Shown in pieces: positions 1 through 935 of a stretch of 64,000 nucleotides of DNA. The number at the start of each line of letters is the position of its first letter. Position 1 is the stretch's first letter. The notes under the pieces are model-generated. The model worked only from the letters and a program-made list of their open reading frames with translations, searched no databases and had not been told where the DNA came from. The position numbers and the translations under genes were made by a program. This stretch comes from Eledone cirrhosa (lineage: Eukaryota): contig OZ024754.1 of the NCBI GenBank assembly GCA_964016885.1, positions 23,126,001 to 23,190,000 of the forward strand, in the 5' to 3' direction.

Positions 1-935
1 TACAATTTGTCTGTCTCGATATAAGTCAATAAAGACAAGCTTATATTGGCAAAAGCCGTGATTCCTGGACAAATTTAAATTTCAAAATCCAATCTTTCAA
101 ATGAAAGTAGATGAATTTGAACTTCGAAACCCAAATATGTTTCGCAACGATGGTACATGAATTGAAAAATAAAGAGAATCGAAATGGAATTGAAATAAAA
201 AGTGAAATATCCAAATCTTCTGTGCTTATCAACAATAAGCTTGTCTTTATTGACTTATATCGAGACAGACAAATTGTATTCACTTTAATTAGTTTATTTC
301 ATGCTAGCTAACTTTGTCTCTTACAATACAAACACGTTTTGTGTTCATCATATATATTAATATATAACTTGTATTTCACTGCTCAGAAATGCCTCTTTCT
401 TTGAGCTGATTAATTGTAAACGACTATGAGTTTAATCTCTAAATATAATATAGTATATTGCTCCTTAACTGTAGAGCTGATCTTTAATCCCGTATAAACG
501 TCTGTTATTTCTAGCACTGGGAATACGGGATGGCTAGTATAGTTGGCTACACTACGTGTAATCAGACCTGCAAAATTTTTGAAGGTGGAATGTACTAATT
601 TTACTGGATTCCTGTTGATAAGCACAGAAGATTTGGATATTTCACTTTTTATTTCAATTCCACTTCGATTCTCTTTATTTTTCAATTCATGTACCATCGT
701 TGCGAAACATATTTGGGTTTCGAAGTTCAAATACATCTACGGAGCGGGTTTGGATTTTGAAATTTAAATTTGTCCAGGAATCACGGCTTTTGCCAATATA
801 GGCTTGTCTTTATTGACTTATATCGAGACAGACAAATTGTATTCACTTTAATTAGTTTATTTCATGCTAGCTAACTTTGTCTCTTACAATACAAACACGT
901 TTTGTGTTTATCATATATATTAATATATAACTTGT
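1..935 (+). mobile_element. Non-coding PLE-like element (family A): inverted 5' segment plus ~563-bp tandem unit carrying a hammerhead
   Basis: 1-234 is the reverse complement of ~614-838. ~237-372 repeats directly at ~800-935. Ends in a (TA)n tract. Homologous to 20877-21916. Confidence 0.7.
607..782 (+). ncRNA. Type I hammerhead ribozyme, U3-A8 core variant, extended stem III
   Basis: Stem I GATTCCTG(607-614)/CAGGAATC(775-782); core TTGATAA(615-621); stem II GCA...TGC; GAAA(704-707); ~26-bp stem III rich in G-U pairs; GTC triplet 772-774. Confidence 0.7.

Follow-up and report, generated by a model that had tools for sequence, protein, structure and literature searches.

Non-LTR retrozymes are the closest described systems. 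They are tandem repeats of low GC content and without coding capacity, carry a single type I hammerhead in each unit, are dispersed as monomers and multimers, and have been proposed to be non-autonomous derivatives of Penelope-like elements (PLEs) (PMC7229834, 10.64898/2026.07.22.740005). The repeat described here has the same composition and dispersal, and its 563-bp unit lies within the retrozyme range of 51-972 bp reported in 10.64898/2026.07.22.740005. Unlike the retrozyme circles described in 2020 (170-400 nt; PMC7229834), however, the unit measures ~500-563 bp and is known from DNA alone, and where non-LTR retrozymes are described with a stem III of 1-2 bp, this motif has a 26-bp stem III, a 76-nt loop II and a U3-A8 core. 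With the hammerheads of PLE pseudo-LTRs (PMC4209133) it shares type I topology, the U3-A8 covariation seen in Cercyon of S. mansoni and an enlarged helix II. Unlike them, it has no RT/endonuclease ORF, is not the minimal motif lacking helix III, and has a helix III derived from an internal duplication. In the double hammerheads of newt satellite 2 and ASBVd, helix III is likewise extended by pairing of two self-complementary module copies (PMC6155905, PMC4209133), whereas here a 37-nt part is duplicated inside one motif, and its second GAAA and first GUC have decayed. Core numbering and topology are those of Rfam Hammerhead_1 (RF00163), yet the loci compared with it from all five families of the repeat (A-E) score below its gathering threshold.

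U3-A8 cores occur naturally and are active in vitro (PMC3088659), with about 1,300 in S. mansoni PLEs (PMC4209133), and large helices III with monomer activity are found in fungal and protist PLE hammerheads (PMC4209133). The PLE layout has been described as partial tandems and inverted truncated copies with an optional tail and (TA)n targets (PMC8557442). The U3-A8 core, the long helix III and hammerhead-bearing tandem repeats have thus each been described already, and the present case extends rather than overturns current views. In the literature searched, mostly papers outside subscription and without supplements, which may list such variants, neither this superfamily nor a natural A4 core nor the growth of helix III by internal duplication was found to be described. 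The need of PLE and retrozyme hammerheads for transposition is an open question (PMC8557442, PMC4209133). Here, the core is canonical in some sister families, off-consensus in others and compensated in others again, with tens to hundreds of copies per family, so that a single lineage could show how amplification success relates to the rate of cleavage and the role of these ribozymes becomes testable.

Hammerhead anatomy

The window, a 64,000-nt stretch of Eledone cirrhosa DNA, was said in a first-pass annotation to carry an oversized hammerhead; stem I, core strand, stem II, GAAA, stem III and GTC were all found at the positions claimed (Table 1). G5, A6, A9, G12, A13, A14, the A15.1-U16.1 pair, H17 and U4 are all present in the window copy (615-621, 704-707, 773-774). 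Each stem I pair had a probability of 0.95-1.0 when folded in a 426-nt context, and stem III comprises 25 pairs, seven of them G-U, and one U-U mismatch. The pyrimidine-rich loop II insert is 76 nt long (625-700), compared with ~29-43 nt for the equivalent span in relatives. No canonical loop motif for a loop 1-loop 2 tertiary contact was seen by eye. The fold of 600-790 had a z-score of -2.99, and none of 200 shuffles was equally stable.

In the copies at 20978 and 21529, stem I has the compensatory swap (GATACCTG/CAGGTATC) reported earlier and stem III the same 67-nt span; the U3-G8 wobble and C10.1-C11.1 mismatch in both had gone unmentioned. A second hairpin lies 5' of the hammerhead (window 488-495/523-530, +). 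Its arms change compensatorily in one copy (L029) and remain complementary in family B, and the hairpin may be a further RNA element conserved in the unit.

Table 1. Positions of the repeat, its hammerhead and the related copies in the window
Feature	Position	Strand	Details
Inverted 5'-truncated copy	1..234	-	begins at equivalent of 613, without most of stem I 5' arm
Full repeat unit	235..797	+	563 bp, non-coding
Type I hammerhead motif, family A (U3-A8 core)	607..782	+	predicted cut between 774 and 775
Stem I	607-614, 775-782	+	5' arm GATTCCTG, 3' arm CAGGAATC; 8 pairs
Core strand TTGATAA	615..621	+	U3 U4 G5 A6 U7 A8 A9
Stem II	622..703	+	GCA 622-624 / TGC 701-703; 3 closing pairs
GAAAC	704..708	+	G12 A13 A14 A15.1 C15.2; GAAA = 704-707
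Stem III	707..773	+	26 stacked positions, 707-732 with 748-773
Duplication module 1	701..737	+	working GAAA; its GUC copy decayed to AUC
Duplication module 2	738..774	+	GAAA copy decayed to GGAG; working GUC
GTC (GUC) cleavage triplet	772-774	+	
Repeated unit start	798..937	+	3' end of insertion, then (TA)n-type microsatellite
Family B hammerhead	20978..21114	+	U3-G8 wobble, C10.1-C11.1 mismatch, same duplication; first of 551-bp tandem
Family B hammerhead, second tandem copy	21529..21665	+	insertion ends near 21921 in (TA)n

Internal duplication in stem III

The 26-bp stem III is a tandem duplication of a 37-nt module that spans the end of stem II through GAAA, hairpin and GUC, and its two copies align without gaps. 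The halves are identical at 24 of 37 positions in family A and at 32 of 37 in family B, a match reached by none of 2000 shuffles, and each half agrees with the single module of family C at 28-32 of 37. The outer arms pair with each other in the geometry of dimeric hammerheads, whose helix III is extended, but here a single active site remains; the motif is a clear example of a helix III enlarged by duplication from within. Among 42 family A copies, the working head TGCGAAAC was intact in 41 and the working tail in 40, whereas the redundant head and the redundant tail were altered in every one. In the window copy, 0 of 12 positions had changed at the working ends and 5 of 12 at the redundant ends (one-sided Fisher p = 0.019), a contrast that lost pairing can explain in part, as the decayed ends lie within the apical loop or close to it. 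In one family B copy (L080, +, ~2000) a deletion between the direct repeats has restored a single 37-nt module.

Repeat unit and insertions

No ORF was found in the 563-bp unit. The inverted copy at the window start continues for 180 bp outside the window into (TA)n, so that the insertion has (TA)n at both ends. Natural tandem spacings were 557 and 551 bp, the runs consisted of two to four or more units, and the sequence common to genomic copies stopped at the unit edges. The 3' ends fell into two fixed clusters across copies, while the 5' ends (58 in A, 64 in B) were scattered evenly over the unit; 0/58 and 0/64, respectively, lay within 7 nt after the cut. Insertions often ran through the cut site and ended well downstream of it. 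Three sequencing runs from one sample, of unknown kind, covered the repeat and had back-jumps at 774 that fit the duplication; these data are uninformative on expression.

The features expected of a non-autonomous PLE were all observed: a tandem that is partial, an inverted copy truncated at its 5' end, 3' ends that are fixed and have an optional tail, and a microsatellite as target. The PLE setting assumed earlier is supported by this Penelope-type layout in (TA)n. In being non-coding, tandemly arrayed and furnished with a single type I hammerhead, the unit also fits the description of a retrozyme. An ORF for RT and GIY-YIG between pseudo-LTRs, as in an autonomous PLE, was absent from the unit, at whose edges the sequence common to the loci ended. 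Elsewhere in the window (20659-20936), an inverted 5' piece of a family B insertion is interrupted by a ~195-bp repeat that we take to resemble a SINE.

Homologous families

Stepwise DNA and pattern searches, the latter over 3.0 Gb of genome, reached five homologous groups, A to E, with B being the type at 20978. The family A pattern TTGATAAGC-N60-90-TGCGAAAC had 494 genome matches against 3 for the reversed control. Homologous repeats with the canonical CUGANGA core gave 924 matches against 1 for the control, and the A4-core pattern gave 679 against 0. A complete hammerhead outside the pattern (the close of stem III, a UH triplet and stem I) was found in 68 of 92 canonical-core matches, compared with 75 of 18,400 random controls. 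The 3' flanks of canonical-core loci matched family B in 25 of 30 cases and family A in 6 of 30 (E<1e-3). In family E and its kin, the core is the textbook CUGANGA and stem III measures ~4 bp; family D has a 5-bp stem III and mostly a CAGAAGA core; and family C has a 13-bp near-palindromic stem III with CAGAUGA, CAGCUGA, CAGAAGA or CUGAAGA cores. Two further patterns were of little use. TACCWGCTGANGAG was near chance (95 matches against 77 in the control), and just one new and related locus among 30 (L179) led to family E; CCTGCTGANGAGCAC gave 15 matches, of which 3 were family members.

None of 10 loci, taken from families A-E and the canonical-core relatives, matched Rfam Hammerhead at the gathering score, in agreement with the earlier expectation that standard searches would miss the variant. 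In an Rfam E-value scan of the window, the large motif was absent among the 150 matches listed of 259. More than 2,000 hammerhead-like sites of a single animal genome (924 + 679 + 494, with Rfam run on 10 loci) thus escape pattern and Rfam screens. A small canonical type I hammerhead at window 25488-25532 (+) scored 31.7 bits with Rfam Hammerhead_1 (gathering 34); it lies just upstream of a (TA)n run and by eye is unrelated to the large motif.

Core conservation and covariation

Of 251 anchored motifs, 17 failed a homology check and were dropped, and 234 were counted; the core and stem I tallies are partly built in, since anchoring rewards G5, A9 and stem I pairing. A fully permissive core was present in 35 of 43 family A copies; the other eight have C4, and two of those also G17. 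U3-A8 and a G-C pair at 10.1-11.1 were each found in 43/43. Fully permissive cores were rare elsewhere (0/46 in B, 2/45 in C, 7/35 in D), indicating that the lineage spread with consensus-breaking cores. GAAAC and GUC were nevertheless the commonest state in all five families, against just 78 of 166 invariant columns in the 3' flank.

Covariation was evaluated on 28 real copies chosen from 44 representatives. In these, 93.1% of cells were paired, 10 of 16 pairs changed on both sides, and the score of 0.455, of a kind that relatedness inflates, was reached by 0 of 500 shuffles; slid controls stayed at or below 0.077. Stem I changed on both sides at 7 of 8 pairs, with several distinct swaps, and the base of stem III at 2 of 5, while the two pairs tested in stem II showed no covariation. 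The 3-8 pair was C-G in 23 copies, U-A in 3 and U-G in 2, and was never broken. A control in which stem I arms were swapped between copies still passed 6,382 of 11,921 trials and adds little, as the arms are related and one mismatch was allowed; covariance model R1 recovers the window copies by construction. Together with the homologous canonical-core repeats and the controls, the conserved core and the covariation support the motif as a type I hammerhead by fold and likely also by descent, from the textbook hammerheads in related repeats.

Predicted folding

In the minimum-energy fold of 607-782, the core strand paired with the loop II insert and stem II was left unclosed. The closing pair 10.1-11.1 of this 3-bp stem had a predicted probability of only 0.008. 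The hammerhead fold of 605-786 lay 3.6 kcal/mol above the ensemble (P ~0.003). Canonical-core relatives did worse in the same test (median 6.8 kcal/mol above the ensemble), showing that the energy model discriminates poorly. In an older family A copy, L083, the hammerhead was the minimum-energy structure. An alternative pairing of the core strand with ATCG 5' of GAAA formed in family B folds; it was rejected as a conserved structure because it is broken in older A copies and shows no covariation.

Proposed order of events

A maximum-likelihood tree of 44 copies, built from the 3' flank alone and midpoint-rooted, formed a ladder E -> D -> C -> B -> A in which several forks are weak. Family A was nested in B as sister to the U3-G8 subfamily (97/92). 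Read along this ladder, the core would have passed from canonical to A4 (and C6), then to C4, then to U4 with the U3-G8 wobble and finally to U3-A8, and the 37-nt duplication would have arisen at the base of family B. Within-family identity, taken from samples of top matches, was 0.979 in C, 0.971 in A, 0.964 in B, 0.95 in D and 0.943 in E. It does not single out family A as the youngest, and A is therefore claimed only as the most derived tip.

A bolder scenario, which we regard as rather doubtful, is that a canonical ribozyme drifted through off-consensus, weak or dead cores but went on transposing, doubled its helix III and then regained an active site by the change from U3-G8 to U3-A8. If it were true, with E and A cleaving well and D, C and B poorly, catalysis would have been lost and then regained in a mobile RNA, and the need of PLE hammerheads in retrotransposition could be tested directly.

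Self-cleavage and alternative explanations

The reading we favor, with moderate confidence, is a hammerhead in a PLE-like non-coding repeat that would cut itself after C774, probably slowly and as a monomer. Cleavage would turn tandem transcripts into unit-length RNAs, which would likely be circularised and then reverse-transcribed by a borrowed PLE enzyme. For self-cleavage of family A RNA, we put the chances somewhat above even. Insertions that run through the cut and end downstream of it indicate that linear monomers with an end at the cut did not serve as template; circles would fit, as would tandem transcripts left uncleaved, and a circle model has been put forward (PMC4209133, PMC7229834). 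Monomer competence, which the first-pass annotation ascribed to the variant, is retained in this reading but not as an innovation, as the canonical-core relatives already have a stem III of 4-5 bp with a loop of 4-11 nt rather than a 1-2 bp palindrome. Because sister families were amplified with off-consensus cores, activity is not inferable from copy number, and 8 of 9 predicted Xenopus retrozymes failed to cleave (10.64898/2026.07.22.740005).

The amplification of families D, C and B with A4, C6, C4, U3-G8 or C/A10.1 cores would also suit a less likely reading, in which the motif is a hammerhead by ancestry that no longer works: the three-way fold would be kept as a structure, perhaps one that serves the reverse transcriptase or stabilises the RNA, and tandem transcripts that stay uncleaved would supply the templates. 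Insertions crossing the cut site, 5' ends spread evenly over the unit and the improbable closure of stem II point the same way, and Craig et al. propose that hammerheads may simply parasitise PLEs, noting that hammerhead-less Naiads proliferate (PMC8557442). Several findings speak against such loss of function. In family A, decay has struck the redundant copies of GAAA and GUC and spared the working ones; a compensating substitution has restored the 3-8 pair, in a core that also has U4 and G10.1-C11.1; and GAAAC and GUC prevail in all families over a much more variable 3' flank. Several of the variable core states (U4C, A6C, 10.1 mismatch) are moreover tolerated natural variants (PMC3088659). 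Pairing of the core strand with the insert in the minimum-energy fold raises an improbable third option, that cleavage requires help from a tandem dimer or from a protein chaperone melting this helix, with the insert acting as a brake. Tandem runs of several units exist, and the literature describes weak in vitro activity for animal PLE hammerheads and better cleavage of dimers for axolotl retrozymes (PMC4209133, PMC7229834). Yet stem III is already stable within one copy, so that dimerisation adds nothing there, and the minimum-energy fold of L083 is the hammerhead itself. That the resemblance arose by chance in an AT-rich repeat, a view to which the missing Rfam match and a core departing from CUGANGA might lend color, is refuted by the homologous canonical-core families, the covariation and the pattern controls, and has next to no probability.

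PLE neighbors and other features of the window

No autonomous RT-GIY-YIG partner was found upstream of 92 canonical-core copies, 61 of them with ~3 kb of upstream sequence and together a small fraction of the genome. Neither was a partner sharing the 3' end found among 16 extended PLE neighbors, also a small part of the genome. When five PLE ORF pieces of the window were compared with the loci by tblastn, only neighbors with 3' UTRs unlike the unit were recovered. At L308, a unit is inserted after a Neptune-like tail.

A PLE-like RT and endonuclease ORF in two pieces occupies window 17716-20307 (-); Pfam gave a weak RVT_1 match only, and we take it to be Neptune-like. Its 3' UTR contains a minimal hammerhead core (~17510-17475, -), and the family B insertion lies at its upstream end. 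A second type of PLE-like ORF, presumably Hydra-like, is present as fragments at 7410-7817 (+) and 15679-17311 (-); it had no Pfam match and is common near many loci. At L275 (~4500-4534; the same place as L025), a 35-nt family A piece is fused to a 5'-truncated Hydra-like ORF with no TA spacer. This fusion is possibly a template switch and, as one case, gives a weak hint at the partner enzyme.

GC-rich rDNA pieces were present at window 42142-42343 and 45116-46413 (+). The C-rich arrays flanking them (36600-37100 and 49800-58000) show a periodicity of some multiple of 6 nt and are possibly telomere-type repeats.
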